Shown here: positions 60-15,279 of the stretch, one piece after another
Layout of the letters: each line of letters begins with the position of its first letter
Position numbering within the stretch: the stretch's first letter is position 1
Virus record (IMG/VR): IMGVR_UViG_3300012347_000246
Source of the DNA: an uncultured virus (IMG/VR IMGVR_UViG_3300012347_000246)
Taxonomy: Duplodnaviria > Heunggongvirae > Uroviricota > Caudoviricetes
Direction: 5' to 3' (one strand)
Length of the DNA: 64,000 nt
Position numbers and translations under genes: made by a program
The notes under the pieces: generated by a model
What the model was told of the DNA's origin: nothing
The model's database searches: none
Seen by the model: only the letters and a program-made list of their open reading frames with translations

Positions 60-160
60 ACTATTTTAAAACACACTAACTAACTTGGCGTTGTAAGTCC
101 GCTTTCGGGGATGATTACACCGTTGGGTCCAAGCTAGTGGCCAATGTGTTTTAAAATAGT
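60..160 (-). repeat. Conserved-stem RNA cassette 1 (18-bp stem, 65-nt payload)
   Basis: Arms actattttaaaacacact (60-77) and aatgtgttttaaaatagt (143-160). Confidence 0.85.
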
Positions 161-283
161 TCCTAGCAGCCTAACCCTCACGCTCTCTTACTCTTGGGTT
201 AATGCGCCTTGCCTTCTCGTGAACAACGTCGAATAGCGATCCACCTTGTTCCGGGCCAGTGCCTTGCGGGCACACTACTATAA

Positions 284-371
284 ACTATTTTGAAACACAC
301 TACAGAACGACCACAATGTCCAAAAAGACCTGGAAGTCAAAACACTGTGCAGTAATGTGCTTTTAAATAAC
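284..371 (-). repeat. Conserved-stem RNA cassette 2 (52-nt payload)
   Basis: Arms actattttgaaacacact (284-301) and aatgtgcttttaaataac (354-371), imperfect. Confidence 0.75.
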
Positions 372-455
372 CTATATGTAAACACACTGACTCTCCAGTA
401 TTGCTACCTTCGCCGAGTTTGACGTCTTAGGTCGTGCAATGTGTTTGCATATAAG
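371..455 (-). repeat. Conserved-stem RNA cassette 3 (49-nt payload)
   Basis: Arms cctatatgtaaacacact (371-388) and aatgtgtttgcatataag (438-455). Confidence 0.85.
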
Positions 456-1347
456 TGGAGGACTGAGAATACATCTCTCCCAACAACACCTCGAGCATTA
501 TTACAAACCTTGCGAGTCTGCTTTCTCTCGACTTCCACTACAACCATATTGCTATGTATCATAGTCTGCTGTCAGCATCGCCGTTTTTAAAGCCAGGCAG
601 TAGGCTTGTCGTCACATGCTATTCTATGCTTTCTATCCCGTTGACCTTGCGAGCCATTAAGTCTTGCGAACTACGAAACTTCCTGCATAAACAGATTTCA
701 CCTTGCGAGTTACGTCTGACTAGATTCACTTGCGTGTCTAGTATTAGATGCTTTTCACATATGACCGAGTCAGTCTTTGCGTTTTAATGATAGTGAGAAT
801 CGAACCCACCGCATTCTGTTTAAGAGACAGATGTTCTACCAATGAACTATATCAACCTACTGCGATGTGCTGACTCAGTTGCTGCGTAAAGTTTTGGCTC
901 TACACAATACAACACACCACGTACCTTTCCTCTTGCGGAGTAATCAGTCGTCTTTCGCGACCAGCGTCTGCATTACTACAGCCACCACCCACTAAAACTG
1001 CATACGAGCTCTTAGGTGCAACCCTTCGAACCAATACACTACCCTTTCTCATACCAATTAACAAAGTTGGTTTCGCATAGAAGTCAGCACCACCTGTTAC
1101 TTTCCATCTACTCAAGTTCCCCTTGATGCAATCTCAGGCTTGTAAGCAAACGTTCTTCCCTATGCACTTTGCGTCACTGTTACATCCACCCGTCGCTGAG
1201 TGAACGCTCCCTCACAGGAGTGAGCAGGCTTGTCTAAATGAACCATTGCTGGCGGAGTTATGTAGGCATACCTCCTTTGGCTGTGTCACCACAGTTATTC
1301 TTCGTCTAGCTGGGCTAACCATACTATCCAGGACATTAAACTGCCCC
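456..1347 (-). ncRNA. GOLLD-like large structured RNA with embedded tRNA
   Basis: About 890 nt with no credible ORF; at least six C-GCAA-G tetraloop hairpins on the minus strand; 3' end TGTATTCTCAG resembles the GOLLD 3' terminus as recalled; tRNA-array context. Confidence 0.7.
785..856 (-). tRNA. tRNA-Lys(CTT) embedded in the GOLLD-like RNA, weak acceptor stem, no CCA
   Basis: TCTGT-CTCTTAA-ACAGA anticodon arm; GTGGG-TTCGATT-CTCAC T arm. Confidence 0.75.
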
Positions 1348-1350
1348 AAA

Positions 1351-1502
1351 TTCTTATACATCTGCACACACGCAGGAATCGAAACCTGCTGCACTTATTT
1401 TAAGAAAGTGCATGTAGCCTTATAGCAAACAGTTTCGAACCTGCTTACTACCACATCAATTCTGTTTTCGACGCAGAACCTCTATGTGCATGTGTATAAG
1501 AA
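1351..1502 (-). ncRNA. Stem-bounded RNA candidate with two T-loop-like motifs
   Basis: Ends ttcttataca / tgtataagaa pair; internal GCAGGTTCGAAAC and GCAGG-TTTCGATT-CCTGC. Confidence 0.45.
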
Positions 1503-1519
1503 CTTCTTATACGTATCTA

Positions 1520-1593
1520 TTTTAAAGAACTTTGTTAGTTAGCACAATGTCTAACTAAGCTTCTATTGTAGCAAACTTTTCATTTGCTGTCAA
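1520..1593 (-). promoter_or_regulatory. Sigma70 promoter followed by boxB-like hairpin and boxA-like element
   Basis: TTGACA-17-TACAAT (1593-1565); hairpin TTAGTTAG/CTAACTAA; GTTCTTTAAAA. Confidence 0.8.
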
Positions 1594-1610
1594 CAGTTAT
1601 TTAGAAATTT

Positions 1611-1888
1611 ATTTTGATGCCTCTTTTTACCTGCTTACAAGGTTACGGGTAAGACTTGCGTCTTTCAGTTGACCCTCATGCAACCAGTAGAGCGTTACTC
1701 TACTTTATTGCAATCCTGGTTCCTGCGTATTGCTACGTGGAACAGATCGTTTCTAACTCATAGGTGTTAGACGCCACAGTAGCCGCTTACAGACTACACA
1801 AGAGTTCCCAGCTTTCTATCTGGACCGGATTTTCGGCAAGAGTTACGCAACCTATTAGCGTAGTACGCCTGCTTACTTTGCATCAAAA
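1611..1888 (-). ncRNA. Structured ~280-nt ncRNA candidate
   Basis: Terminal pairing TTTTGATGC/GCATCAAAA; several GNRA hairpins; own promoter upstream; no ORF. Confidence 0.55.
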
Positions 1889-1893
1889 CAAAT

Positions 1894-1958
1894 TTTTAAA
1901 GAACGTTTGTTAATTGCTTAACATGAGTGTATTGTAACACATTTTTCTTTATTGTCAA
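1894..1958 (-). promoter_or_regulatory. Sigma70 promoter followed by boxB-like hairpin and boxA-like element
   Basis: TTGACA-16-TACAAT with TGn (1958-1931); TGTTAA-GCAA-TTAACA; GTTCTTTAAAAA. Confidence 0.8.
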
Positions 1959-1977
1959 CTACTGTTGAAAACAAACT

Positions 1978-2062
1978 TGGTGCGGATGGTCGGACTCGAA
2001 CCGACACGCCTTTCGGCGCTAGAACCTAAATCTAGTGCGGCTACCAATTACGCCACATCCGC
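1978..2062 (-). tRNA. tRNA-Leu(TAG)
   Basis: Full cloverleaf, long variable arm, CCA. Confidence 0.95.
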
Positions 2063-2070
2063 TTAGATAA

Positions 2071-3237
2071 TTACTTATCGTTTAAGCTAGTATTATATGC
2101 GAAGTTGATTTTACTGTCAACATGTTTTTGCATGATTTTAGTGAAATCTTCAAACTTCTCTGCTTTTGGAGCACAGTAGCCGCATATACATCTAACTTGC
2201 TTGCATTGTATAACAGGAACAGTATTCCCGTCAAGCAGTTTTTGTTGATCGTCTAGAATTTTTTTGGTATCACTTAGGTTCCCGATTGGGCCTATGCCAC
2301 CGTCGAAGTTCATTTGACAATCTTTGTTTACATAAACATCACCATTGTGTTGTCTAATGTATAAGAAGTACCAGTTTACACTGCAATACCAATCTTTAAA
2401 ATCCGCATGTGGTACAAAGCCCATTGGATGTTTTAAGTCTTGGTTAGTACATAATCCTCTGCCGCCACAACAGCTACGACCAATCTTGCCCATACCAACT
2501 GTATCATCTGTTACTTCTTTTAACATGATGATCTTGTTGCGACTCTTTTCGGGCGTCTTGCTTTCGTAATAGTCTGCAAAGAACTTGAACTGATCTTTAT
2601 TGTATTGCCACTTAGGTGTAGGTGTGTCGTTGGCTTTAACTACATGCTTGATATCATGCTGTTTGCAAAACTCCACAGCTTGCATGCTTATATCCCACAT
2701 TTGAGGATCGTTATGCATCACAAACACTACTTTTTGCTTCCTGTTGATGGCCTTATTGTAGAGGATGTTGTCTAGCACTTGCTGGCGCTGCTTAGGCAGT
2801 GCTTCGCTGTGAAAACTAACTGTAAACTCATCTACGTGTTTGGTAACCTCGGTCCACAAGTTCTTTCCTGCTACGCCGTTAGTGGTTACTGTAACTGTTA
2901 ATGTCCAGTCATCCTTGAATGCTTCATGGCGCTTTCTAAGCTCTTGCAGAATCTCTACAATGTTAGGATGATAGATAGCTTCGCCGCCGTAAAGATTTAG
3001 AACCACGATGCGTTGCCACTTAGGCTTGAGCATCATGTAACGATGAACATAATCGAACATAAAGTCGATTGTGTTTAAGCATTCATCTAGCGGAGGGTGT
3101 GAGCTATGGTTGTCATGCCACTGCGGTCCACAATAGCTGCAATCAAGATTACAGCGTAGAGTTAACTCCCAATCCAATAGCAGAATTGGCCTATTAGACG
3201 GATCAATTGCTGGCTCAACGCTTACAATCTTATCCAT
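2071..3237 (-). CDS. Radical SAM protein with C-terminal Cys cluster
   Basis: CNLDCSYC motif, YGGE, TTNG, C-terminal CxxxxCxCxxC. Confidence 0.9.
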   Translation of the reverse strand: MDKIVSVEPAIDPSNRPILLLDWELTLRCNLDCSYCGPQWHDNHSSHPPLDECLNTIDFMFDYVHRYMMLKPKWQRIVVLNLYGGEAIYHPNIVEILQELRKRHEAFKDDWTLTVTVTTNGVAGKNLWTEVTKHVDEFTVSFHSEALPKQRQQVLDNILYNKAINRKQKVVFVMHNDPQMWDISMQAVEFCKQHDIKHVVKANDTPTPKWQYNKDQFKFFADYYESKTPEKSRNKIIMLKEVTDDTVGMGKIGRSCCGGRGLCTNQDLKHPMGFVPHADFKDWYCSVNWYFLYIRQHNGDVYVNKDCQMNFDGGIGPIGNLSDTKKILDDQQKLLDGNTVPVIQCKQVRCICGYCAPKAEKFEDFTKIMQKHVDSKINFAYNTSLNDK

Positions 3238-3808
3238 ATACCATTACCAGTTGTTGTTCAAACCATTCTTTGCATTCTGCAAAGGGTTTAGCAAATCGCA
3301 AGTTAAACCAAACTCGAGATCCTGTATTGTTGATGCCATGCATCTTTTGAATGTCCAGTAACCAACCTTCTCCAGCGTTACTCGGATACACTTCTATGTA
3401 GTCTTGGTCCTTTACATAGGTAAGACTGTCTGTGGTGTTAATGAAATAGTTAAACCCAGTATTCTGGCCGGGTTGGTCTTTGTGCTCTGCACCATTGCCC
3501 ACTAGTTTGTTCACGGACACTATGGTAGGCTCTAGCTCACTTAAACTTGCTAACATTAGCGGAAGAAAGGGCATTGACTTTTCGATCAATGGGCCTGTCA
3601 TATTATACCAGTAACTGCTACCGTTAGTAACGTGGCTAATTGTGCCAGCAGATCCTAGTTCATAGTGGTATCCATACTCACTATACTTGTATTGCTTTGT
3701 GATTTTATCACTGTTTGAGGTAACTAGACCAATGCCATGCTCTAATACTGCAATGGTATTTTTCCAATTATGATCAATTCTGATCGGGGTTTTGTATGTT
3801 AGTAACAT
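3230..3808 (-). CDS. Hypothetical protein, possible 2OG-Fe(II)/cupin fold
   Basis: HKD...HGINN...RVW pattern resembles the HxD...H facial triad. Confidence 0.55.
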   Translation of the reverse strand: MLLTYKTPIRIDHNWKNTIAVLEHGIGLVTSNSDKITKQYKYSEYGYHYELGSAGTISHVTNGSSYWYNMTGPLIEKSMPFLPLMLASLSELEPTIVSVNKLVGNGAEHKDQPGQNTGFNYFINTTDSLTYVKDQDYIEVYPSNAGEGWLLDIQKMHGINNTGSRVWFNLRFAKPFAECKEWFEQQLVMVYG

Positions 3809-3811
3809 GTA

Positions 3812-4092
3812 TCTATAAAGAGGTGGAGCATATAAAACTTATTTTTCAACCGTGGACTGATGCACGGCCGGTAGCTATCCGGCTCGCTTCGTAAGCTCAA
3901 ACGGGTAATTGCCATGCCCTAACTTACACATCTTCTCAGAGTCTCAATAATTCGCGATTTTAAAATCCATTTGTTGCCTCGGAGGTTTCCGATATTTGAT
4001 CACGGGCCACTATTCTCAGGCAAGAAAGATCGCTACTAAATCTACCACAGGTAATAAGTCACTGCCTTGTGTATGCTCCACCTCTTTATAGA
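3812..4092 (-). ncRNA. ncRNA or leader candidate bounded by a perfect 21-bp inverted repeat
   Basis: tctataaagaggtggagcata (3812-3832) / tatgctccacctctttataga (4072-4092); promoter directly upstream. Confidence 0.55.
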
Positions 4093-4106
4093 CAAATTGT
4101 TGAGTT

Positions 4107-4134
4107 ATTATAACAAAATTTGAATTTAAGTCAA
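4107..4134 (-). promoter_or_regulatory. Sigma70 promoter
   Basis: TTGACT-16-TATAAT with TGn. Confidence 0.7.
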
Positions 4135-4141
4135 CTGGAAT

Positions 4142-5335
4142 TTACGTAGTTAGGTCCAGTAAGTGGAACAATGGAGTAGAATTCAACTTTAATCCAAATC
4201 CATAAGTTCCTTCTACTAGGCTCATTGGGCTTACCCCACTTGTAAATTCTTTTGATCCATGGTAGAACGCTTTCCGCAATGAATCTAGCTCAGGAAGTTC
4301 GTGCAGCCAAAAATACCAATCGCTTCGTTCTTTATTTGGCTTCACAACTTGAAATTTATTATTATCCCACGTATCTTTATACAACACTGAATTAAAAATT
4401 CGACGCTGAGCAGCATCATAGTGAGACTTGTTGTGATTATTAGTTAAAAACCAAATTGGGCTTTCTAATAAAGGTCTTGCTGCTTTGTTATGATTAAAAT
4501 ACAGTGCAATTTGATAAGCCTGCTCCACTGGCAACAGAGGCAGGTCCGCAGACCAATAAAATAGTTCAACTCTGTCCTCTCCCATTGCTTCAACCATGCT
4601 TGCATTAGTGTGAAAGCTGTCTAGGAACTTAAAGTATACCTTTCCATCAACTGCTGTAACATACGGTTTGTCAGTTCCAATTACATGACCAACTTTTCTA
4701 CTTGTTGGCGATACCAACGATAACTTAGTCTCACAGTTGGGATCAAGACGAATAACCGTACTGCCCAGACTTAAGTGACCGATATTGATTTGGGACAATC
4801 TATTTGTAAGTTGATCCACTCCCAAGGACTGGTTTCCTAAATACTCTGCATAATCAACAATGTTGATTTTTATTTCAGGATTGGATATTTTTAATCTATC
4901 AAGAGTTGGCTTAATGGAATAGTTCCATTCGCTTGCTGCATTCCTTGCAGAAGTATCCTTAGTGTTAGGAGTGTAACCATTTCCATCAATAAGATGTTTT
5001 GGCCAACGCACCATTACTTCGTCAAGTTTAATATTGTTTGTTAAAAACGTTTCCAATATGTTATGACTATCGGCCCCGCCTGAATAATGCAATACTACAT
5101 AATCGTATTTGTCTCTAATTTGTAAAGCACGTTCCTTGTACAAAGTTGTTAGTGGGATTTTTCCCAACAACGATTTGTCAAACTTTTCCCAAACTTGATT
5201 GTGAAAATAAAAAGAAACTGGGCCGGATCTGTTTGCATACGCATGTCGATATGCATCAATTTTTGCAGTGAATGGCACTGAGTTAGAAACCCAACATCCA
5301 TATTTACTACTGAGTGTTTTTGAGATATTAACCAT
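4142..5335 (-). CDS. PP-loop (adenine nucleotide alpha hydrolase-like) protein, paralog 1
   Basis: LYKERALQIRDKYDYVVLHYSGGADS; ELFYW motif shared with paralogs. Confidence 0.8.
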   Translation of the reverse strand: MVNISKTLSSKYGCWVSNSVPFTAKIDAYRHAYANRSGPVSFYFHNQVWEKFDKSLLGKIPLTTLYKERALQIRDKYDYVVLHYSGGADSHNILETFLTNNIKLDEVMVRWPKHLIDGNGYTPNTKDTSARNAASEWNYSIKPTLDRLKISNPEIKINIVDYAEYLGNQSLGVDQLTNRLSQINIGHLSLGSTVIRLDPNCETKLSLVSPTSRKVGHVIGTDKPYVTAVDGKVYFKFLDSFHTNASMVEAMGEDRVELFYWSADLPLLPVEQAYQIALYFNHNKAARPLLESPIWFLTNNHNKSHYDAAQRRIFNSVLYKDTWDNNKFQVVKPNKERSDWYFWLHELPELDSLRKAFYHGSKEFTSGVSPMSLVEGTYGFGLKLNSTPLFHLLDLTT

Positions 5336-5362
5336 TAGTTGTTGACGTTAACACTATTTATA

Positions 5363-5436
5363 TGGTGCTCCTACAAAGAATCGAACTTTGGATTACGCTA
5401 TACCACAGCGTCGGTATGCCATTTACCTATAAGAGC
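5363..5436 (-). tRNA. tRNA-Thr(GGT), atypical loop bases
   Basis: ACGCT-GTGGTAT-AGCGT, T arm, CCA. Confidence 0.8.
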
Positions 5437-5437
5437 T

Positions 5438-5514
5438 TGGTGCCCCGGGCGAGACTCGAACTCGCAAAATTTGGATTTTGAATCCAACACGTATACCAAT
5501 TCCGTCACCGGGGC
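5438..5514 (-). tRNA. tRNA-Leu(CAA) with short variable loop
   Basis: TTGGA-TTCAAAA-TCCAA, Leu-type D arm, CCA. Confidence 0.9.
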
Positions 5515-5518
5515 AGGA

Positions 5519-6727
5519 TTAGTTGGTGCGTACTGCAAATACTTCTTGAAAGGACTCTCCCCTAATCACATCATATTTTTTTGTATAATCAAAAAATGCT
5601 ATTGGATCATGCGGGGTTGATTCAATTAGCCCCTTCTTTACATTTAACAACTCTGTACGCAATACTAGATAATTTGGCGCAGTTAAAATCTCTACCGATT
5701 TATCAATTTCAGTGATTGCTTTACTTCGTAGCTGCTTTGGTAAATTGTTAAAATGCATGCCAGGCGGCGAAGTCACATTGTAACATTTTATACCAATTGA
5801 TGCATTTTCATTGTATAGTTTCATTAGAAAAGAGGCAAGTGCAGAAAAGTCCATTAAACTATATGCAGATATAGCAGTGGTCACTTCTAAATTAAATGGA
5901 GCAGGCAACTGATTTAATTTAAGAACATTACTTTCGACTTTAGGCCAATCAGTGCCGCTGCGAATATATTCCGCAGATTTTCCTACTGCGTCAATGCTCA
6001 TTACTAACTCTACTTTTTTAAACTCACTAAGTCGAGTAATAAAAAGTGGATTATACACACTACAATTGGTATATAACTCTAACTCCATATTCCTACTAAA
6101 CCCATTGCTAATTAAGTAGTCTAGATAGTCGTAATATTCTTTTATCAAAAATGGTTCGCCACCGGTTAAACATACCTTTCGAACTGACGCCAACAACGAC
6201 TTGTCCTTGAGACTTTCAATTACCGCAGGGTCTGCTTTAGTTATTGGAATTATACTGTGCTCGAGATGACTTCCGGCTTTATCCGGCTTGATCTTATGTT
6301 CAATTTTTTCTGCTGCAAAGCTGGAACTAGATGTTTCATCGCACATCCTGCATTTCATATTACATAGATTGCTAAATCTAAGTTCAATTCTTGTTGGTAC
6401 TGTTGGACTGTCAGCAGTAAACTTGTTTGCAAACCACTGGTCTTCATACTCAGGTTCGGGTCCTACATTGTAGTAATTCCAAATTGCTCCGCGTGTGCTT
6501 TTTAGTCCATGACGCTCACGCTCTTTGCAACCAGAACATGCAGCAGGAACGATCCCTTGCTGCATTTCTTGTTTTATATTCTTGAGCCATTCGCTATTAA
6601 AATAATCAGACGGGGTTGCTTCCATCTCTAAATTTTTAATCATGTGACACGGACTGGGCGAGTTAGCATGGTAATACAACAATGACCACGGGGCAGGACA
6701 GAAGAACTTCTCCGAAAACTTTGCCAT
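5519..6727 (-). CDS. Radical SAM protein with N-terminal twitch/SPASM-like Cys domain
   Basis: CPAPW...CSGC, CNMKCRMC, TGGEP; start moved to the ATG at 6727 (AGGAG RBS) because the longer ORF overlaps a tRNA. Confidence 0.9.
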   Translation of the reverse strand: MAKFSEKFFCPAPWSLLYYHANSPSPCHMIKNLEMEATPSDYFNSEWLKNIKQEMQQGIVPAACSGCKERERHGLKSTRGAIWNYYNVGPEPEYEDQWFANKFTADSPTVPTRIELRFSNLCNMKCRMCDETSSSSFAAEKIEHKIKPDKAGSHLEHSIIPITKADPAVIESLKDKSLLASVRKVCLTGGEPFLIKEYYDYLDYLISNGFSRNMELELYTNCSVYNPLFITRLSEFKKVELVMSIDAVGKSAEYIRSGTDWPKVESNVLKLNQLPAPFNLEVTTAISAYSLMDFSALASFLMKLYNENASIGIKCYNVTSPPGMHFNNLPKQLRSKAITEIDKSVEILTAPNYLVLRTELLNVKKGLIESTPHDPIAFFDYTKKYDVIRGESFQEVFAVRTN

Positions 6728-6742
6728 ACTACTCCTATAATT

Positions 6743-6818
6743 TGGTGCCTCTAACCGGGGTCGAACCAGTGACACACGGATTTTCAATCCGCTGCTCTAC
6801 CAACTGAGCTATAGAGGC
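6743..6818 (-). tRNA. tRNA-Phe(GAA)
   Basis: Canonical cloverleaf, CCA. Confidence 0.95.
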
Positions 6819-6917
6819 AAATTTTAAATGGTTGTGGGTTTTTACCACTCCTGAACCTTGTTCCACCGCTCGGTCAAAGACTTATGTGGCGATCCCGTGC
6901 AGCTCGCATTACACTAT

Positions 6918-7038
6918 ACCATATAGAAGCACTCTCAAATGCAGGCCTAGGAGGAGTCAAGCTCTGAAACCGTTGCGTATGCATCCACTAAGGTCTCTTC
7001 TCCCGCTTTGTCTTATGCTAAGAATACTTCTATATGGC
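6918..7038 (-). repeat. Conserved-stem RNA cassette 4 (85-nt payload)
   Basis: Arms accatatagaagcactct (6918-6935) and agaatacttctatatggc (7021-7038); compensatory changes. Confidence 0.85.
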
Positions 7039-7137
7039 GGTGCATAAGTTAACCTAAAACTAGTCTAATATCGCGGCCGCAATATTTCGTCTATGTCTTA
7101 GGATATACACGTTGGTACCTTGCGTACCTTACGCACC
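7035..7137 (-). ncRNA. CCA-ended stem-bounded small RNA candidate
   Basis: GGTGCGTAAG ... CTTATGCACC-GCCA. Confidence 0.5.
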
Positions 7138-7977: not shown

Positions 7978-7980
7978 GTA

Positions 7981-8280: not shown

Positions 8281-8763
8281 CTACATGTTTCTAAATTGAA
8301 TTGTACGCCAGGCTTCAGGATCGGGTTGTTCATTCTCATCGTATGTCCAACCTAGTGCCTTCATCATCTTGTGCTTAACACGCAAGTTAGGTATACGTGT
8401 ACGTTCAGTATCACTGAACCCCATCATGATTCCAACTTCTGCTACTGCACCACTGCGACATAAGCCAGCCATACAGTGTACTACAACATTCATTTTATTG
8501 TCAAGTGCATGTTGAAGTAGTTTCACTATTTCATTTGCTTGTTCGTCTGTAATTTTAGCTTCGTCCGGAAACCCATCTTTATCTTCGGCATCTAAAAACT
8601 CGAAACGATGTGCTTCCTTAAAAGTGTGTGCAGGTGTTGGCCACCAACTCGGACACGGATCCATAATTTGAATCAACATAGAATTGTCCCCAGCATCATG
8701 ATGCAATTTCATCGGTACATCGGCTGCTGCTACGTTTTCAATCCAAGGCATTTTATTCTCCAT
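8281..8763 (-). CDS. Cys-based (PTP/dual-specificity) phosphatase
   Basis: VVVHCMAGLCRS CX5R motif. Confidence 0.85.
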   Translation of the reverse strand: MENKMPWIENVAAADVPMKLHHDAGDNSMLIQIMDPCPSWWPTPAHTFKEAHRFEFLDAEDKDGFPDEAKITDEQANEIVKLLQHALDNKMNVVVHCMAGLCRSGAVAEVGIMMGFSDTERTRIPNLRVKHKMMKALGWTYDENEQPDPEAWRTIQFRNM

Positions 8764-8803
8764 TCTGCATTATAACATCGATTCTATTATAACGCAAGAG
8801 TAT

Positions 8804-8880
8804 TGGTCGGTCCTGAGGGACTCGAACCCCCAACCTACGATTTCGAAGACCGGAACTCTATCCAGTTGAGCTAAGGACCG
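8804..8880 (-). tRNA. tRNA-Arg(TCG)
   Basis: Cloverleaf, loop CTTCGAA, CCA. Confidence 0.9.
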
Positions 8881-8993
8881 AGGTGAAGGTTTTAATGGTG
8901 CCGGGATTACCTTCAACCCCGTGTACACAGCCCATCCCACGTTTCGTGTACAGCGGACGCTGATATCTTCTCTTGCGAGTTAGTGGGTCAGCG
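8881..8993 (-). ncRNA. Three-hairpin small RNA candidate
   Basis: CGCTGA/TCAGCG, TGTACAC/GTGTACA and TGAAGGT/ACCTTCA stems. Confidence 0.45.
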
Positions 8994-8995
8994 AA

Positions 8996-9601
8996 TTACA
9001 TTGTAGGCGCAGAACCATTGCCGTAAACTTCTTCACGACGTTTCATACCCACAGTGCCACCCTCTGCTTCAATACGTTTGATAACGTCTTCAAACAAGAT
9101 AGGCGCAAAGTTAGTGTGCTCTACACATACACAATGGTATCGTGGATCGATAATTTCACCACCGTAGCCATTTGATTTCATTACACGACGATCATGTAAG
9201 TGACCGTGAATGTTAACACCAAAGCGACCTAACGACGATTCATGTAAAGGGATATGACTCAAGATCATTCCGTTCAATACATGATACCCACGCACATCAC
9301 GAAAGTGTTCGGTATATTCCTCTAAGCGAAAAATATCGTGGTTGCCTTTGATTAACACCTTGTCGCCATTTAGGCGGCGCATGATGCCTAATGCTTTACG
9401 GTTAATAACAACGTCACCTAAGTGATATACTTTGTCATTTGGGCGCACTGTGTCATTCCAACGGCGCACCATTTCTTCGTCCATTTCGTCAGGATTGTCC
9501 CACGGACGCAATTTTACGTTAGGGTCATCTTTACTCATAAACTTGCAGACACCCATGTGCCCGAAATGAGTATCACTGACTAAAAAACTTGCCGGCATCA
9601 C
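8996..9601 (-). CDS. Calcineurin-like metallophosphoesterase
   Basis: SDTHFGH, HLGD, GNHD, HGHLH motifs. Confidence 0.9.
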   Translation of the reverse strand: MMPASFLVSDTHFGHMGVCKFMSKDDPNVKLRPWDNPDEMDEEMVRRWNDTVRPNDKVYHLGDVVINRKALGIMRRLNGDKVLIKGNHDIFRLEEYTEHFRDVRGYHVLNGMILSHIPLHESSLGRFGVNIHGHLHDRRVMKSNGYGGEIIDPRYHCVCVEHTNFAPILFEDVIKRIEAEGGTVGMKRREEVYGNGSAPTM

Positions 9602-9678
9602 AGCCTCCTTATTACTCTATAAAGTACATACATTATAACACCAATTACAATTAAAGCCATTGCATGTACTCCTAATTT

Positions 9679-9755
9679 TGGTGCCCTGGGAGAGACTCGA
9701 ACTCTCAGCTTACGGCTTCTTAGACCGCTGCGTTTACCAATTTCGCCACCGGGGC
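9679..9755 (-). tRNA. tRNA-Leu(AAG) with short variable loop
   Basis: GCGGT-CTAAGAA-GCCGT; Leu-type D arm; CCA. Confidence 0.85.
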
Positions 9756-9770
9756 CTGATAAATAAACTT

Positions 9771-10325
9771 ATGAACTACGATAAATTCCGCCAACTCTTA
9801 AGTCTGTTTGAAGCCCGCAATCCTGATCTCGAATACCAGGAAACTGAGAAGCAAGTTATTGCTATCCTTAGAGGATCTAACAGCCAAGTATTCACCAAGC
9901 TAGCACAAAAAGTTGAACGCATTAGTCAACTTGAAGCAGAACTAAAAATCCTCAAAGAAGAAGTTAAGCAAAGCACTAGAGACGATGTAGCTGCATTGTT
10001 TAATGCAGAAGATGGCGCTAAAACTCGTATTATTCAAACTCTAAGTTTTATCTTGCAACTAAGCAAAGATCCAGAAGAAACTAAATCTCCAAAGTACAAG
10101 GACATCCTTGCTGTACTCGAAACCAAGTTAACTCCAGAGCTAATCAAAGTTCTTGAAGAGCTTAAAAAGACTATGGTTACTGTTACACAAAAAGAAGCAG
10201 GTCTTAAAATCAAGCCACTCGACGAAGGACAAGACGCAATGCTGTTCAATCGTTTAAACGAGTTAGTTCAAGACTGGGGCCAACGTTATGACCAAAAGCT
10301 AAACGCATTAATGCAACAGGTATAA
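9771..10325 (+). CDS. Hypothetical coiled-coil protein
   Basis: ATG just after an ATAAATA late motif; the longer ORF overlaps a tRNA. Confidence 0.75.
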   Translation: MNYDKFRQLLSLFEARNPDLEYQETEKQVIAILRGSNSQVFTKLAQKVERISQLEAELKILKEEVKQSTRDDVAALFNAEDGAKTRIIQTLSFILQLSKDPEETKSPKYKDILAVLETKLTPELIKVLEELKKTMVTVTQKEAGLKIKPLDEGQDAMLFNRLNELVQDWGQRYDQKLNALMQQV

Positions 10326-10327
10326 TC

Positions 10328-10747
10328 ATGAAGATCAAACCATTAAAAGAATATATCCGCGAAGCAGAAGTTGCGGACCGCCCACCAGAACTAGCAAAGC
10401 CTCCTGTGGGGCAGCAACAAGAAAAGCCAGCCGATAAACCAGGTGGTTTTACTGTTATGATTCTTAACGATGGTATGACGCCAGCTGAAGTAGTTATTGA
10501 AGCTATTGTTAGCGTAACTGGAATGAGCTCAGACGCTGCATTCACTAAAATGATGCGAGCACACCAAGGCGGATGGGCGCCAATTAAATCATATGCCAGC
10601 AAAGACGTTGCCGAGACTATTGCACATGGCATTATGCGTCATGCACAACAAAATGATCGCTACGATCATTATCGTCAACACCCACACTTCCGTAACTTTA
10701 AAGGCCCCTGGCCTCTTACTGCCGAAGTAATGGATGCTGCTCAGTAA
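10328..10747 (+). CDS. clpS: ClpS-like Clp protease adaptor
   Basis: VMILNDGMTPAEVV...MMRAHQGG...KDVAET matches the ClpS core. Confidence 0.8.
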   Translation: MKIKPLKEYIREAEVADRPPELAKPPVGQQQEKPADKPGGFTVMILNDGMTPAEVVIEAIVSVTGMSSDAAFTKMMRAHQGGWAPIKSYASKDVAETIAHGIMRHAQQNDRYDHYRQHPHFRNFKGPWPLTAEVMDAAQ

Positions 10748-10749
10748 TT

Positions 10750-10823
10750 TGGGGTGAAGCCGGGAATCGAACCCTGGTCCCTTGTTTCACAGACAAGTAT
10801 TCTACCACTGAACTAGCGACACC
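10750..10823 (-). tRNA. tRNA-His(GTG)
   Basis: G-1, loop CTGTGAA, C73, CCA. Confidence 0.9.
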
Positions 10824-10935
10824 ATAACGGCACTAAGGGCTTTCCTCTCAAGCGTGTGCCACACATATAACAGTAAACTATTTCTCATCTGTTATACATC
10901 CCAGTTGACTGCTGGTTCAGTGAAAATAGTTTTGA

Positions 10936-11047
10936 GTTAATGCGATGGGATTCGAACCCAACCATCCCGCCCGGTTTCGCTAGTTACTTGCCCTGCAAGG
11001 CTTTCCCTAGGTACTCGGGGCCGGTATGCCAGCCAGTACATCTCACA
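10936..11047 (-). ncRNA. tRNA-like element with expanded anticodon region
   Basis: TGTGA/TCGCA acceptor-like pairing; GGG-TTCGAAT-CCC; no CCA. Confidence 0.45.
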
Positions 11048-11084
11048 ACCTGTCGTTCAGTCTTGCAGGACCTCCCGAGCAGTC

Positions 11085-11513
11085 TCAAAAGTCTTCTGTG
11101 ATTTGACGTAGATCTTCTATGTTTTCTACGCTGCCGTCTTCGTTATATTTCACTGATCCGCCGTAGTATCCATTGTGGCTATTACGCACTTCAATGTCAA
11201 TGTACCCACGATCAGTTTTGATAGTCCAGAACGCATCCTGGACCACTTCGTGTCCTTCTTCTTCGTGATCCTCACCCCAACCTTTGTCTTCAACACCGGT
11301 TACTAGTGCCCCACGTAATAGATCAAAGCTGTTGCCTTCACCCAAGATAGTAACGCCGTTAATGTGGTTGAACCACACGCTGTTGCAGCAATCATTTTCG
11401 GTATCATAGCGATGAAACTTACCATCGATGGTTCTAACCACCAACGCCCAGCTATCATTACCCAGGAAAATACCGTTAATACGTTGTCCAACTAAATTTT
11501 TAAAAACGCTCAT
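11085..11513 (-). CDS. Hypothetical phage protein
   Basis: Clean ORF; DCC and HNGYYGG motifs seen in phage proteins. Confidence 0.75.
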   Translation of the reverse strand: MSVFKNLVGQRINGIFLGNDSWALVVRTIDGKFHRYDTENDCCNSVWFNHINGVTILGEGNSFDLLRGALVTGVEDKGWGEDHEEEGHEVVQDAFWTIKTDRGYIDIEVRNSHNGYYGGSVKYNEDGSVENIEDLRQITEDF

Positions 11514-11728
11514 TGCTGCTCCTTGCAGTTATTATACTGCTTTATTCTTTTTGAGTTGTTGTACAACTCCAGATTGTAGTCAAGTAATTCCCCTGGAATC
11601 GATTCACTTGTACACACGTTACAGACGTTCTTTTTAAAGCCTTTAACATATGGTCCGGTTTCGGGCCGAAAGGTGTATGTAACTACTTTAGTATCTTCAG
11701 ACCCACAGTATGCACATGAATGTTTCAT
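11510..11728 (-). CDS. YgiT/MqsA-type zinc-finger protein without HTH domain
   Basis: CAYC...YTFR...VKG...CNVC; AGGA RBS. Confidence 0.65.
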   Translation of the reverse strand: MKHSCAYCGSEDTKVVTYTFRPETGPYVKGFKKNVCNVCTSESIPGELLDYNLELYNNSKRIKQYNNCKEQQ

Positions 11729-11739
11729 AAAGTCCTTAA

Positions 11740-11816
11740 TGGTATCTCTGGCAGGAGTCGAACCTGCTACCCCTAAGTTCGTAGCCTAGTGCTCTATCCA
11801 GATGAGCTACAGAGAT
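11740..11816 (-). tRNA. tRNA-Arg(ACG)
   Basis: Cloverleaf, loop CTACGAA, CCA. Confidence 0.9.
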
Positions 11817-11828
11817 AAATATTTTACT

Positions 11829-12371
11829 ATGACACAACTATTCACCGAAACCGCAAGACACCATTCAAACAGCATAAGTCGTGCTAATCCAAATTGGCGC
11901 AACGACTCAGTTTACGCTTTCTATAAAAGCAACGGAGAAGTGCTAACTTTAGCTGAGTTAGTAAATAGTTTAAACCCGCAATCTGTCCTTGATTTTGGGT
12001 GCGGCAACGGGTTAGCATTACCTTCAATTGCAGGAGTTAATGCAAAAGGGTACGATCCATTTGTAGACGAATTTTCTACTTGGGAACCTGCTGTGTATGA
12101 TTTAATAGTGTCGCATTTTGCAATTTTGCACGTCGAAGATCAATTCTTCAGCGACACAATTAAAATGTTACGTAATGCATGTGGTAAAAATTTTGTTGCC
12201 ACGTTTGCTCTTACTAAACATATACCACATCGCGATACTGAATGGTATATTAATCATCTTAAATCCCACTTTACCATTGACGACCAGTACACTAGTGCGC
12301 CAATAGAATGGACTGATTCCAACAATGTTACTACTACAAAGCAAATAGTAACCATATGGTGTTCAGTTTAA
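11829..12371 (+). CDS. Class I SAM-dependent methyltransferase
   Basis: VLDFGCGNG, GYDP, YDLIV; start after ATAAATA. Confidence 0.8.
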   Translation: MTQLFTETARHHSNSISRANPNWRNDSVYAFYKSNGEVLTLAELVNSLNPQSVLDFGCGNGLALPSIAGVNAKGYDPFVDEFSTWEPAVYDLIVSHFAILHVEDQFFSDTIKMLRNACGKNFVATFALTKHIPHRDTEWYINHLKSHFTIDDQYTSAPIEWTDSNNVTTTKQIVTIWCSV

Positions 12372-12376
12372 GTTAT

Positions 12377-12453
12377 TGGTCCGTGTGACACGATTCGAAC
12401 ATGCGACCACCTGGTCCCAAACCAGGAGCTCTACCAGGCTGAGCTACACACGG
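12377..12453 (-). tRNA. tRNA-Pro(TGG)
   Basis: Cloverleaf, CCA. Confidence 0.95.
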
Positions 12454-12460
12454 ATAATTT

Positions 12461-12536
12461 TGGTGGAGGTAAGGAGGATCGAACTCCTGACCTTTAGCTT
12501 GCAAAGCTACTGCTCTCCCAGCTGAGCTATACCCCC
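12461..12536 (-). tRNA. tRNA-Ala(TGC)
   Basis: Cloverleaf, G3:U70, CCA. Confidence 0.95.
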
Positions 12537-12543
12537 ACTATGC

Positions 12544-12617
12544 TGGTGCCCCATAACAGAATCGAACTGCTATCCCCGGATTACAAAACCGGTGTTCTAC
12601 CATTTAACTAATGGGGC
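12544..12617 (-). tRNA. tRNA-Thr(TGT)
   Basis: Cloverleaf, CCA. Confidence 0.9.
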
Positions 12618-12704
12618 GAAATGCTTCCAACTGTGACCTTACGCTCTCTCCGTTGGCGATTGAGCAGCCGACATTCTTAAAGTCTTCTCGGAACTGACTT
12701 AAAT

Positions 12705-12780
12705 TGGCTCCCCAGCGTGGGATCGAACCACGGACACCTTGATTAACAGTCAAGTGCAACTACCGCTGTGCTACTGGGGA
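12705..12780 (-). tRNA. tRNA-Asn(GTT)
   Basis: Cloverleaf, GCCA. Confidence 0.95.
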
Positions 12781-12788
12781 ATGATACA

Positions 12789-12817
12789 ATTATATATGAC
12801 AAACATTACCTTGTCAA
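12789..12817 (-). promoter_or_regulatory. Consensus sigma70 promoter
   Basis: TTGACA-17-TATAAT. Confidence 0.85.
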
Positions 12818-12824
12818 TAAATTT

Positions 12825-12899
12825 TGGTAGCCATGGACAATTTCGAAATGTCGACCTAACGCTTATCAAGCGTTTGCTCTTCCTCTGAGCTACACGGCT
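12825..12899 (-). tRNA. tRNA-Ile(GAT)
   Basis: Cloverleaf, loop TTGATAA, CCA. Confidence 0.9.
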
Positions 12900-12914
12900 A
12901 AAAATAAATACAGT

Positions 12915-13118
12915 ATGAGTAAACCCAATCCAGGATTTGAAGAATTACAACAGCTCGGTTACGGAACATACCGCAACACTGTGAGCTATTCGTGCATCAA
13001 AGATTTCACTCTTACATATGCTAAAAAGACTAACGAGCTTTTTGTCCCCGACGGTCTTCCTAAACAAATTGGCAGGGGTAATCGGATTCGAACCGATGAT
13101 ACTAATTTCAAAGACTAG
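12915..13118 (+). CDS. Small hypothetical protein; 3' end antisense to tRNA-Gln
   Basis: ATAAATA-CAGT-ATG start like other plus-strand late genes. Confidence 0.45.
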   Translation: MSKPNPGFEELQQLGYGTYRNTVSYSCIKDFTLTYAKKTNELFVPDGLPKQIGRGNRIRTDDTNFKD

Positions 13119-13147
13119 TGCTTTAGGCCAGACTAAGCTATACCCCA
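13070..13147 (-). tRNA. tRNA-Gln(TTG)
   Basis: Cloverleaf, GCCA. Confidence 0.9.
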
Positions 13148-13160
13148 ACAAAATTAACCT

Positions 13161-13235
13161 TGGTACTGAGTACGGGAATCGAACCCGTCTTTGCGACTTG
13201 AAAGGCCACCGTCCTTACCGATAGACGAACCCAGT
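13161..13235 (-). tRNA. tRNA-Glu(TTC)
   Basis: Cloverleaf, CCA. Confidence 0.9.
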
Positions 13236-13243
13236 ACAAAAAT

Positions 13244-13319
13244 TGGCGCCTCGTAGGGGTTTCGATCCCCTTGCCTCTACAGTGACAGTGTAGTGCTCTC
13301 CCGATTGAGCTAACGAAGC
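13244..13319 (-). tRNA. tRNA-Asp(GTC)
   Basis: Cloverleaf, loop CTGTCAC, T loop ATCGAAA, GCCA. Confidence 0.9.
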
Positions 13320-13586
13320 ATATAAAAGCAATAGCGTTACTGCAAACAGAATGAACTGAGTGGCTCGCACTATCGCGGATGTTTGTGTTAAGTTGTTTGC
13401 CGCACAACCATAACAAAGCGGGGGTCTGTGTTTGTCAACAATTTATCTCATTATACGCCGCTGACAAGGGCGAGGCTCAGTAGCAGCATTAAACAATACT
13501 GCAAAATTTGTGGAAGTTCCGATAGCACCCATCGTCACTTACAACCGTTGAGTAACCATGCATCAAAACAAGATTACTATTTGCTC

Positions 13587-13672
13587 TGGTGGAGGCGACT
13601 GGAGTTGAACCAGTAGTGTCATAAGACGGCGGATTTACAGTCCACTGGGGTTACCAATTTTCCTACACCTCC
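13587..13672 (-). tRNA. tRNA-Tyr(GTA)
   Basis: Cloverleaf with long variable arm, CCA. Confidence 0.95.
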
Positions 13673-13681
13673 AAAAACTTT

Positions 13682-13783
13682 ACCATATGTAAACACACTA
13701 GCGTTTTACGATAAACTACGCTCCCGAGTTTCTGCTCAGGACCCCATAGGTTTGCCTATGTTTCTAATGTGTTTGCATATGGT
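13682..13783 (-). repeat. Conserved-stem RNA cassette 9 (66-nt three-hairpin payload)
   Basis: Arms identical to cassette 8 (13682-13699, 13766-13783). Confidence 0.9.
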
Positions 13784-13877
13784 GTAGTAACTGAGAGTTG
13801 AACTCAGAACGAATACTGTCATTTTACAATGGGTAATATTACCTCCCACCGCTGTATGCCCCTCGGATAATTACTTC
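13780..13877 (-). ncRNA. tRNA-shell RNA with aberrant anticodon arm
   Basis: GAAGTAA/TTACTAC-A-CCA; CTGAG-TTCAACT-CTCAG; extended central stem with no 7-nt loop. Confidence 0.6.
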
Positions 13878-13922
13878 CTACTCACATACAGGCACAGTCG
13901 TTACGCCTGTTTACCACAAACT

Positions 13923-13998
13923 TGGTACTGCGTATGGGAATCGAACCCATCTTACTAACGTGAAAGGCTAGTGTCCTAAACCGATAGACGAACGCAGC
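13923..13998 (-). tRNA. tRNA-Glu(TTC), second copy
   Basis: Cloverleaf, CCA. Confidence 0.9.
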
Positions 13999-14044
13999 AT
14001 TATTTCTAACATGTGTGTATTGTAACACACTTCTTCTTTTATTT

Positions 14045-14121
14045 TGGCGACCCCGAAAGGATTTGAACCTCTGACATTTGGTTTTGGAGACCAACGTTCT
14101 GCCGGACTGAACTACGGAGCC
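14045..14121 (-). tRNA. tRNA-Trp(CCA)
   Basis: Cloverleaf, loop CTCCAAA, GCCA. Confidence 0.95.
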
Positions 14122-14129
14122 ACTAAACA

Positions 14130-14205
<76 letters not shown>

Positions 14206-14215
14206 ATCTGATTCT

Positions 14216-14306
14216 TGGCGGAGACCGTGGGAATCGAACCCACTCACCTGCTCATCACAAGTGTACACCTTAGCAGGGTGCTGCATTACCGGCCTGCCCG
14301 GTCTCC
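14216..14306 (-). tRNA. tRNA-Ser(GCT)
   Basis: Long variable arm, GCCA. Confidence 0.9.
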
Positions 14307-14361
14307 AATGTTCTATTGTTACATACATTTAGATATGTGTCAACAGATATTTTTAAAAATT

Positions 14362-14453
14362 TGGCGGAAAGCAGAGGAGTCGAACCCCATCCCCGTTAAG
14401 AGAACCTGGTTTTCAAGGCCAGTCGCAGGACCATCCCCGCTGCATTACTTTCC
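14362..14453 (-). tRNA. tRNA-Ser(TGA)
   Basis: Long variable arm, enlarged D arm, GCCA. Confidence 0.85.
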
Positions 14454-14458
14454 ATATT

Positions 14459-14534
14459 TGGTGCCACGAACTGGAGTTGAACCAGTGACGCATAACTTTT
14501 CAGGCTATCGCTCTACCAACTGAGCTACCGCGGC
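14459..14534 (-). tRNA. tRNA-Phe(GAA), second copy
   Basis: Cloverleaf, CCA. Confidence 0.95.
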
Positions 14535-14542
14535 ATATTGTT

Positions 14543-14627
14543 TGGTGGAGTTTGTCAGGGCTTTCACCTGATACTGCCCACGTGAGTTACACGCAGTTTC
14601 GTCCTATATGTTACGTATTCAAACCCC
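14543..14627 (-). ncRNA. Ala-identity tRNA-like RNA resembling the tmRNA tRNA-like domain
   Basis: GGGGTTTG/CAAACTCC-ACCA with G3:U70; TCAGG-TGAAAGC-CCTGA; no standard D or anticodon arm. Confidence 0.6.
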
Positions 14628-14630
14628 AAA

Positions 14631-14769
14631 TAGGTTTTTGAGAGCCCAACTATCCTTCGGCAGGACTCACTGGATTGTCTCGTATGGGCAAGTTTAAACT
14701 ACCATAGCTGCAATGTGGCTTTGTCACATACCAGACGATATGCTATGCACTATGGGACTCAAACCCTAC
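14631..14769 (-). ncRNA. Stem-bounded RNA candidate
   Basis: TAGGGTTTGAGTCCCA pairs imperfectly with TGGGCTCTCAAAAACCTA. Confidence 0.4.
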
Positions 14770-14784
14770 GTCTATCTCAAAACT

Positions 14785-15038
14785 TGGCTTCGTTAGCAGG
14801 ACTCGAACCTGCGATAAGGGGCTTAAAATCGCGTATGCTGGGTGCCCCCCGTGTTTCCCAAAGTTACCCTCACATCCCCTCAATGCCTTATCTTACGTTC
14901 AAATAGTTAGACCTGTTCCGCACTTCCCGGACTCACAGTGTTTGGTTTTAAAGCCTACGCGATTGTTATCTAACTATCATACTAGCACATTATCTCATCT
15001 ACTCAATGCTACTCTACCTTCCTCTACACTATAACGAA
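14785..15038 (-). ncRNA. 254-nt tRNA-shell RNA
   Basis: Perfect acceptor TTCGTTA/TAACGAA-GCCA and T arm GCAGG-TTCGAGT-CCTGC around ~200 nt of foreign sequence. Confidence 0.65.
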
Positions 15039-15045
15039 ATAAACT

Positions 15046-15121
15046 TGGTGGAAATAAGAGGGGTTGAACCTCTGACCGTCAACGTATGAAGCTGCTGCTC
15101 TACCAACTGAGCTATATTTCC
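15046..15121 (-). tRNA. tRNA with CAT anticodon (Met or Ile2)
   Basis: Cloverleaf, loop TTCATAC, CCA. Confidence 0.9.
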
Positions 15122-15200
15122 AAATAAAACCCTTAAGGTTTCCGGCACTGGGCTCGGACATACGATAGAATCAGTATCTATATATGATCGTCATCCTTAA

Positions 15201-15279
15201 GGTATTCATAAACAAACTAGTGGGACGCTGCCAAAATTATATAACATATACTGATTCGTCTAGTTTGTTTGTGAATACC
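15201..15279 (-). repeat. Divergent conserved-stem cassette (20-bp stem, 39-nt payload)
   Basis: ggtattcataaacaaactag / ctagtttgtttgtgaatacc; shares the taaaca.act core. Confidence 0.55.

Follow-up and report, generated by a model that had tools for sequence, protein, structure and literature searches.

The tRNA arrays of phages are now viewed as counter-defence loci, and their non-tRNA content is almost unannotated. In the array of an uncultured member of the Caudoviricetes (IMG/VR record IMGVR_UViG_3300012347_000246), of which a stretch of 64,000 nt was analysed here (the window), ten hairpin units share one closing stem and enclose mutually unrelated inserts, hereafter called payloads. This raises the question of what kind of element is kept constant at its base and varied at its head, i.e., whether the units are RNA genes, mobile DNA, or both. 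An earlier note, made from the letters of the window, had proposed a modular RNA display system in which a common stem carries interchangeable payloads.

The reading favoured here, with a probability of roughly 0.6, is that the units are small-RNA gene cassettes that are co-transcribed with the tRNAs, and that the shared stem doubles as the homology arms through which payloads are exchanged. The RNA and DNA readings are thus to be combined rather than opposed, because the units also behave as DNA modules that are exchanged between genomes. From the proposed display system, the constant stem, the swappable inserts, the tRNA-sense strand, the RNA-type covariation and the link to the CCA end are retained, while the window held no antisense targets beyond those found with shuffled sequences.

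A constant stem around unrelated payloads

All ten units are located on the minus strand, inside a tRNA array of the same strand. Each has a closing stem of 18-20 bp around an insert of 38-83 nt, and none of the ten inserts clusters with another. Unit 1 (60-160) has the arms ACTATTTTAAAACACATT and AGTGTGTTTTAAAATAGT around a payload of about 63 nt, and scores 56.4 bits on the minus strand vs 36.7 on the plus strand with the covariance model R1 described below. Unit 2 (284-371) has the most divergent arms of the first cluster and a partial match at 288-367 (27.3 bits), and unit 3 (371-455; 54.7 bits) lies directly 3' of a GOLLD RNA. Unit 4 (6918-7038; 41.3 bits) contains an ATTCT/AGAGT arm variant with three G.U pairs on the minus strand; unit 5 (7135-7237; 55.1 bits) carries a tRNA-type T-arm in its payload, beside the 3' arm. 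These are followed by unit 6 (7346-7421; 45.3 bits), unit 7 (7645-7730; 63.8 bits) and unit 8 (7824-7905; 60.4 bits). Unit 9 (13682-13783; 59.2 bits) has a three-hairpin payload that forms a family with payloads of three other viral loci (L027, L077, and L111). Lastly, unit 10 (15201-15279; 44.5 bits), with which the array starts on its 5' side, is divergent and has the arms GGTATTCACAAACAAACTAG and CTAGTTTGTTTATGAATACC.

The coordinates agree with those of the earlier note, since an inverted-repeat scan combined with folding recovered all ten units. Its minus-strand consensus, ACCATATRNAAACACATT...AGTGTGTTTNYATATGGT, was likewise correct, and so was its observation that units 8 and 9 have identical arms (19 nt) around different inserts. 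R1 describes a stem of 19 pairs and was built from an alignment (A1) of 72 units, ten from the window and 62 from other contigs. At E<=1 it matched exactly these ten places in the window (3e-14 to 9e-5 on the minus strand), scored higher on the minus than on the plus strand for every unit, and gave no match in the 48.7 kb outside the tRNA region. Because the ten units are in the training set, their own matches are partly by construction, and the informative part is that there is no other match in 64 kb. The folding energy was lower on the minus than on the plus strand in seven of the ten.

The family was extended with the search pattern CCATATNNAAACA-N(48-78)-TGTTTNNATATGG, which matched at least 123 stretches in IMG/VR viral contigs (loci L001-L123). 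Family-wide counts are drawn from loci among the matches listed, and contigs other than the window were seen with 3-kb flanks. Across the family the helix consists of 5' (A)CCAUAUAAAAACACAUU paired with AGUGUGUUUCUAUAUGG(U) 3', has 18-21 bp, and usually shows an A.C at pair 8 and a U.G at pair 16. Stem cells in A1 are paired in 94.4% vs 87.7% in shuffles (0/500 reach it), and changes on both sides occur at 12 of the 19 pairs, as the compensatory arm changes of the earlier note implied; controls with slid partners were 30-55% paired. Stem positions 1-6 and 9-13 are fixed by the search pattern in the 62 non-window rows and uninformative there, and the signal at free positions comes from position 7 (AU 47, UA 15, GC 7) and positions 14, 16, and 18.

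A position-by-position view was obtained from 121 distinct units, numbered in tRNA-sense orientation with the first C of CCAUAU as position 1. Position 0 is A-U in 74%. Position 7 is Watson-Crick in 98% and covaries (AU 90, UA 22, GC 6), position 8 is mismatched in 64% (A.C 66, C.A 5, C.C 4; the rest A-U or G-C), and position 14 is C-G in 104, U.G in 11 and U-A in six units. At position 16, U.G predominates (83 units, 69%), next to C-G (22) and U-A (16), with a mismatch in none of the 121; position 18 is paired in 84% with six pair types, and the sequence is random beyond position 19. The two arms are thus told apart by a fixed set of differences. The earlier note had taken G-U pairs on the minus strand as a sign of RNA-level selection. 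Position 16 bears this out, while position 8, with its mismatch on the same strand, does not. As that mismatch is a G.U on the other strand, wobble counts alone do not fix the strand. It offsets the U.G of the stem, so the case for the sense strand rests on orientation, junctions and payload G.U pairs rather than on the stem alone.

tRNA junctions and spread of the family

The orientation of the units matches that of the tRNAs in all 103 informative cases. In 90 of 120 pattern units, the last base of a called tRNA is the A of the arm's CCA, which confirms that 5' arms start at the ACCA end of an upstream tRNA; the same holds for 116 of 225 distinct units of a wider scan. Among the rest of the 225, 29 follow a tRNA-like end that bears a T-loop, nine abut another unit, and 71 follow other sequence, mostly CCA-ended too. 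A looser scan of our own gave 240 places, in 122 of which a called tRNA precedes the unit, i.e., Lys(UUU) in 66, Gln(UUG) in 14, Leu(UAG) in ten and Glu(UUC) in nine; a called tRNA begins at the arm's terminal GG in 62 of the 240, and 32 of these are Met(CAU). The sockets after Lys(UUU) (66/122) and before Met(CAU) (32/62) are thus strongly preferred. The helix often extends into both tRNAs, with N72-A73-CCA paired to U-GG-U-A, and CCA is encoded in 517 of 531 closely spaced tRNAs of these arrays.

The same junctions are seen in the window. The discriminator and CCA of tRNA-Lys(UUU) (7902-7977, minus strand) form the first pairs of unit 8, whose 5' arm begins with the ACCA end of this tRNA, and a co-fold of the two placed the cloverleaf against the hairpin with zero unpaired bases between them. 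From there, an alternating array at 6819-7823 (minus strand) interleaves hairpins 8 to 4 with five CCA-ended elements. Seven inter-hairpin elements (7823-7731, 7644-7422, 7345-7238, 7134-7039, 6917-6819, 13922-13784, and 283-161, all minus strand) are called by neither ARAGORN nor Rfam. Six of them end in (A/G)CCA and the seventh, 283-161, ends in GGAA; by eye, a T-arm-like hairpin is present in 7823-7731, 7644-7422 and 13922-13784, and an acceptor-like stem in some others. An RNA contig is 100% identical to 7429-7564 and departs from the window at its ends.

Transcription signals do not coincide with the arms. None of the 35 promoter-like sites in the window has both hexamers inside an arm, and one weak plus-strand match (9/12, 290-317) begins in the arm of unit 2. 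Likewise, of the 25 terminator-like sites none falls on a closing stem, one is located inside the payload of unit 9, and the stems are not followed by a T-run.

All viral loci that have flanks are dense, co-oriented arrays of tRNA genes, holding as many as 28 in 6 kb. With R1, 79 loci yielded 335 matches in total (both strands counted), several of these loci having three to six consecutive units, and in three whole viral records (225-364 kb) all matches are confined to one short region. In 596 Gb of bacterial and archaeal genomes the same search pattern matched seven stretches only, all on contigs of metagenome-assembled genomes from unrelated phyla, which are taken to be binned phage DNA.

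The earlier note did not recognise a described family, and Rfam 15 contains none that overlaps any unit, at the gathering score for the whole window or at E<=1 for 1-20000. No unit is covered by any of 30 ARAGORN calls or 28 RF00005 matches. The sole match to the YrlA/Y RNA model RF02553 (24.8 bits; gathering score 69) falls on two tRNAs at 12397-12516, and no TROVE (Ro) domain was found among the open reading frames (ORFs) scanned with Pfam. Megablast of window positions 1-16000 found only tRNA pieces in cultured phages, blastn of unit 9 found no match in them, and blastn of a consensus-like unit at E<=10 gave eight chance matches in protein genes. R1 gave no match on Pseudomonas phage PA5oct, the nearest cultured relative, and literature searches, in which the arm sequences were also entered as text, returned nothing relevant to the units. 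Together, the units point to an undescribed kind of modular RNA gene.

As for the payloads, 224 distinct units fall into 146 payload clusters; one cluster that had merged tandem units was excluded. Payload length is 27-97 nt (median 49), and G+C content is 0.49 vs 0.42 for the loci. Hairpin loops of 7 nt are enriched (30 vs 12.1 +/- 3.5 in shuffles) and mostly T-loop-like; a T-loop motif stands near the 3' arm in 15 of the 146 clusters, and the T-arm region of tRNAs is matched in 12 of the 146 in sense vs one in antisense. Two payload families, A3 and A4, with five and six members, keep their helices through compensatory changes. In A3, 97.2% of payload pairs are paired vs 84.8% in shuffles (0/500), with double changes at five of 12, although the structure was derived from the same sequences on which it was tested, which favours it. 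A4 shows AU/UA and CG/GC/GU switches inside the payload and resembles a tRNA without D-arm on a helix of about 24 bp. The G.U pairs of both families are on the tRNA-sense strand.

Two candidate roles for the payloads were rejected. A guide or antisense role is not borne out by the window, where the longest antisense matches of the ten payloads to minus-strand transcripts are 9-12 nt, within the range of shuffles. A role as anticodon-loop decoy was considered from an excess of Y-U-NNN-R-N loops (7 vs 0.9), which is explained by T-loop-like sequences.

Exchange of payloads between genomes

The nearest viral record (G001), a 62-kb fragment, shares 60% of the window's sampled 31-letter words. The two differ by a handful of substitutions over 6740-8060 and are 96-98% identical by BLAST elsewhere; in the flanks of the units, identity is about 98-100%. 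Units 4, 6, 7, and 8 are conserved in G001, unit 6 identically so, and the region of unit 10 is within a block that is 98% identical overall. Unit 5, in turn, has a wholly unrelated payload in G001 between unchanged arm ends and flanks, and the payload of unit 9 is likewise replaced as a whole, with identical arms and flanks; the payloads are thus interchangeable, as the earlier note had supposed. At unit 3, a block of 381 nt, from inside the 5' arm up to the following tRNA, is replaced in G001 by an unrelated sequence of 341 nt with two other units. G001 also has an extra unit together with a tRNA-like element, inserted exactly at the CCATAT with which the 5' arm of unit 4 starts, and the extra unit has an 88% similar counterpart in L003. 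The two genomes thus differ by three replaced segments and one indel, each with at least one break point in an arm, as is the case in promoter-early stem-loops (PeSLs). The exact 27-nt flank of unit 9 was found only in G001 among viral contigs and nowhere in metagenome contigs.

Similar observations were made across the family. Among the IMG/VR loci, 17 pairs have both flanks at least 0.9 identical, 12 of which are duplicates. Of the five non-duplicate close pairs, one differs in payload (L020 vs L083, same Gln..Lys context, flanks 0.93, payloads 0.55). The comparison with G001, together with the L020/L083 pair, shows that the arms are recombination break points and that payload exchange is fast relative to point substitution.

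The reverse, i.e., the same payload in different surroundings, was also found. Payloads are shared between Leu(UAG)..Ala and Lys..His contexts (98%), and between Gln..Ser and Val..Asp contexts (95%); the payload of unit 5 is 89% like one in L084. For 50 inter-locus pairs whose payloads are at least 0.9 identical, identity is 0.92-0.94 in the arms, about 0.5 in the 5 nt beyond them, and 0.33-0.52 farther out; 23 of these pairs have unrelated flanks on both sides and 19 on one side. Payloads are 85-98% identical in 18 of 20 listed pairs, the two others (0.37 and 0.32) being set aside as coordinate artefacts of merged tandem units. In 13 of the 18 pairs that have tRNA species in common, same-anticodon tRNAs are at a median only 64-82% identical.

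Interpretation, related systems and surroundings

In the proposed mechanism, the units would be small RNA genes that form part of phage tRNA operons and are co-transcribed with the tRNAs, in the window from the minus strand. Each RNA would form one long hairpin in which a universal basal helix closes a unit-specific payload. The helix usually starts with the CCA of the upstream tRNA or tRNA-like element, often including its discriminator, and often ends in the first two G residues of the next tRNA. Processing of the tRNAs would cut both ends of the unit, namely by tRNA 3'-end maturation on the 5' side and by RNase P on the 3' side, and would release a stable hairpin with no dedicated nuclease. 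Alternatively, the helix of about 20 bp may be an RNase III-type site; with 18-21 bp, it has the roughly two turns of double-stranded RNA of an RNase III stalk, pair 8 being mismatched in 64%. The helix may also act as a stability or recognition handle. At the DNA level, recombination breaks at the two arms: one payload takes the place of another where the arms are identical, and whole modules come and go at an arm. Because of such exchange, one and the same payload is found next to different tRNAs, in phages that have diverged far more in their tRNAs than in the payload. The heads would best fit accessory RNAs, such as decoys or mimics, under diversifying selection, because varied structured heads are carried on one handle, are hypervariable between near-identical phages, and are located in arrays that are thought to be counter-defensive.

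Several observations weigh against the cassette reading. Payload clusters are barely more stable than their shuffles (folding z-score over the 146 clusters: mean -0.61, 9% below -2), such that the claim of structured inserts in the earlier note stands for the two covarying families and not for the average payload, and most clusters have too few members for covariation testing. The mismatch at position 8 falls on the tRNA-sense strand and is a G.U on the opposite one. Both R1 and the scanner were seeded from a strict pattern, which makes the invariance of the arms partly one of construction, and the arms could be conserved through recombination that homogenises them rather than through binding. 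Near-identical payloads in diverged phages could reflect recent transfer of selfish DNA, not selection. When ORFs of about 80 loci with 3-kb flanks were clustered, none of the protein families was consistently linked with the units, the commonest being present in 13. RNA cover of the hairpins, which speaks neither for nor against expression, is thin. Six metatranscriptome runs contained a small share of the window's words, and four were compared, as contigs without strand or ends: the summed depth is 0-288 in the bin of units 1-3 and 0-19.4 in the two bins of units 5-8, in libraries from which short RNAs are usually lost. Unit 4, which spans two bins, has a summed depth of up to 124, and the neighbouring GOLLD region reaches 49,000.

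The units might instead be selfish miniature mobile DNA (MITE-like or recombination-driven), i.e., inverted-repeat elements that spread in phage tRNA arrays without function for the phage and with incidental transcription. They are indeed discrete, with homology that stops at the arm ends, near-identical payloads are found where the tRNAs are only 64-82% identical at the median, and payload replacement and a module indel separate near-identical genomes. TA...TA flanks are present at 55 of 225 units, and a TA duplication is typical of IS630/mariner-type elements, although the palindromic TA is itself uninformative on duplication. When non-palindromic left dinucleotides were considered, seven of 135 were directly repeated, which is about chance, 15 were inverted complements, and for 4 nt the count was 0 of 220. 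The MITE reading, the alternative that the earlier note had named, is unsupported because no target-site duplication was found. Moreover, orientation is never reversed (103/103), copies within one genome all differ inside, unlike MITE bursts, orphan arms are rare (8/188 and 7/222), no long (master) element with the same ends was seen, and payload helices are kept by compensatory changes; selfish DNA is therefore considered unlikely.

Pure processing or punctuation hairpins, of which only the stem would matter as an RNase III-type or other site between tRNAs, with a neutral filler as loop, are quite improbable as well. A helix of about 20 bp exactly between one tRNA's 3' end and the next one's 5' end, strongly conserved arms, payloads with little average structure (z -0.61) and unrelated payloads at the same site (median pairwise identity 0.51 among the 60 Lys-UUU-linked units) would suit such a role. 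However, tRNA gaps in the same arrays are mostly 10 nt or less without a hairpin (542 such gaps), and the hairpins are therefore not needed merely to separate tRNAs; in addition, the loops never shrink (27 nt at the least, 49 nt at the median), conservation between two phages is far higher for their payloads than for their tRNAs, compensatory changes occur in two payload families, and 7-nt loops are enriched. Another view is that the units are attC-like sites, i.e., folded single-stranded DNA hairpins with which a site-specific recombinase shuffles tRNA and tRNA-like cassettes, the RNA being irrelevant. The attC sites of integrons are strand-specific imperfect inverted repeats of similar total length, with conserved ends and a variable centre, that mark cassette boundaries. 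The units resemble them as imperfect inverted repeats of 75-120 nt with conserved ends, a conserved unpaired stem position and a variable centre, in the alternation of hairpins and tRNA-like elements at 6819-7905, and in the module indel at an arm. They differ in holding the cargo inside the hairpin rather than beside it and in their RNA-type covariation, which includes G.U pairs in the payloads. The scanned ORFs (21 in two Pfam scans, 22 in PHROGs; 64 kb of genome) included no integrase or other tyrosine recombinase, the hairpin is inherited alone and not together with the gene beside it (23 of 50 pairs have unrelated flanks on both sides), and by eye the arms misfit the R-box consensus RYYYAAC/GTTRRRY, which makes this view very improbable.

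A wider form of the cassette reading is possible but is put forward tentatively, as an idea that we consider doubtful. In it, large freshwater phages would keep a recombination-driven cassette system that uses the universal stem both as RNA handle and as DNA arms, at least 146 head types would be swapped in fixed sockets of tRNA arrays, and near-identical phages would obtain different RNA repertoires. Such a system would be the RNA counterpart of integron or shufflon diversification, with heads that plausibly serve as decoys or mimics against tRNA-directed host defences.

Several known systems share features with the units. Small non-tRNA RNA genes are also found in the tRNA cluster of phage T4, namely rnaC and rnaD (species 1 and 2), which are co-oriented with the tRNAs and stand directly after a CCA end. 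To our knowledge, their function is still unknown, and we know of no constant-stem/variable-payload design or payload swapping described for them. They are closer to the CCA-ended inter-hairpin elements than to the hairpins, and an unfiltered R1 search of the T4 tRNA region reached 8.7 bits at most (E 0.47), at neither gene. Correia elements and MITEs are about 100 nt long, have terminal inverted repeats, and are co-transcribed into RNA hairpins that are cleaved by RNase III; the units differ from them in the lack of target-site duplication, the fixed orientation and the interiors, which are unrelated per genome. For the processing of the units, two analogies from different hosts and machinery may be mentioned, i.e., the TMERs of murine gammaherpesvirus 68, where a hairpin directly after a tRNA-like unit is freed by tRNA 3' processing, and the processing stalks of rRNA, where a long leader-trailer helix around the mature RNA is cut by RNase III.

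The PeSLs of T4-type phages are described as a short conserved repeated sequence with a stem-loop (Arbiol et al. 2010, PMC2839356). Like the units, PeSL copies are break points of insertion, deletion and replacement between close phages; unlike them, PeSLs combine a sigma-70-like promoter with a terminator hairpin and flank protein genes (PMC2839356). The units are located in tRNA arrays, hold their cargo inside the hairpin as itself structured RNA, and have no coincident promoter or terminator site. GOLLD (RF02032) and ROOL are phage non-coding RNAs of unknown function near tRNA islands (PMC5737381; bioRxiv 10.1101/2024.12.08.627333). They have a large single conserved fold, whereas the units are small, unmatched in Rfam, and unrelated in their interiors.

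With this family, phage tRNA arrays gain a class of small RNA genes that is widespread and easy to recognise. A constant stem around structured payloads that are hypervariable and horizontally exchanged was not described for RNA genes in the literature searched. If the payloads are functional, this would be a naturally occurring scaffold-plus-insert design, and phage-host arms races could be tracked in metagenomes at a new hypervariable locus; if they are selfish, a new type of mobile element would be living in tRNA operons without transposase or target-site duplication. Either way, R1 is a marker for finding units, and the sockets after tRNA-Lys(UUU) offer fixed positions for a direct reading of population variation.

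The window itself is part of a large T4-type or jumbo myovirus from freshwater. By PHROGs it encodes UvsX, gp32, the large terminase, the tail sheath and the tail tube, and the closest cultured terminase (TerL) is that of PA5oct, with 55% identity. DNA runs that contain window sequence have mostly freshwater labels, with one wetland and two seawater. The 30 tRNA genes called by ARAGORN are within bases 1-18,650, on the minus strand only, and Rfam gives 28 RF00005 matches. The GOLLD RNA (RF02032, 207 bits) covers 460-920 on the minus strand, directly upstream of unit 3, with a tRNA-Lys(CUU) at 785-856 inside it. Freshwater metatranscriptome contigs over 535-1602 reach a summed depth of about 49,000, and those over 1348-1941 of 340-624; the stretch 920-1941 may be a variable 5' domain of GOLLD or another large RNA.

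Among the promoter-like sites, whose overall count in the window is not above chance, two are perfect 12/12 sigma-70-type matches on the tRNA-sense strand (12817-12789 and 2120-2092, minus), and these suggest that the array may be transcribed as several units. A tRNA-like gene with a long extra arm, uncalled by ARAGORN, is located at 14366-14453 (minus); its match to the tRNA-Sec model is weak (34.9 bits; gathering score 47), and it is 88% like an unannotated stretch in Pseudomonas phage PHB09. The tRNA-Ile(UAU) call at 18192-18283 (minus) is 92 nt long, which is unusual for this tRNA, and may hold an insertion or a long extra arm. Odd ARAGORN calls also occur in some other arrays; for example, L058 has a tRNA-Pyl(CUA), and one call in L013 has an anticodon of four bases.

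Searches with the unknown ORFs in the tRNA region of the window gave no informative Pfam or NCBIfam match. Three radical-SAM genes are present in or beside this region (2071-3237, 5519-6787, and 21144-22082, minus), of which 5519-6787 encodes a twitch-domain radical SAM protein (NF033640, 274 bits). Among structural genes, 51669-53300 (minus) matches PHROG 2928, which is annotated as tryptophan halogenase (E 3e-152).

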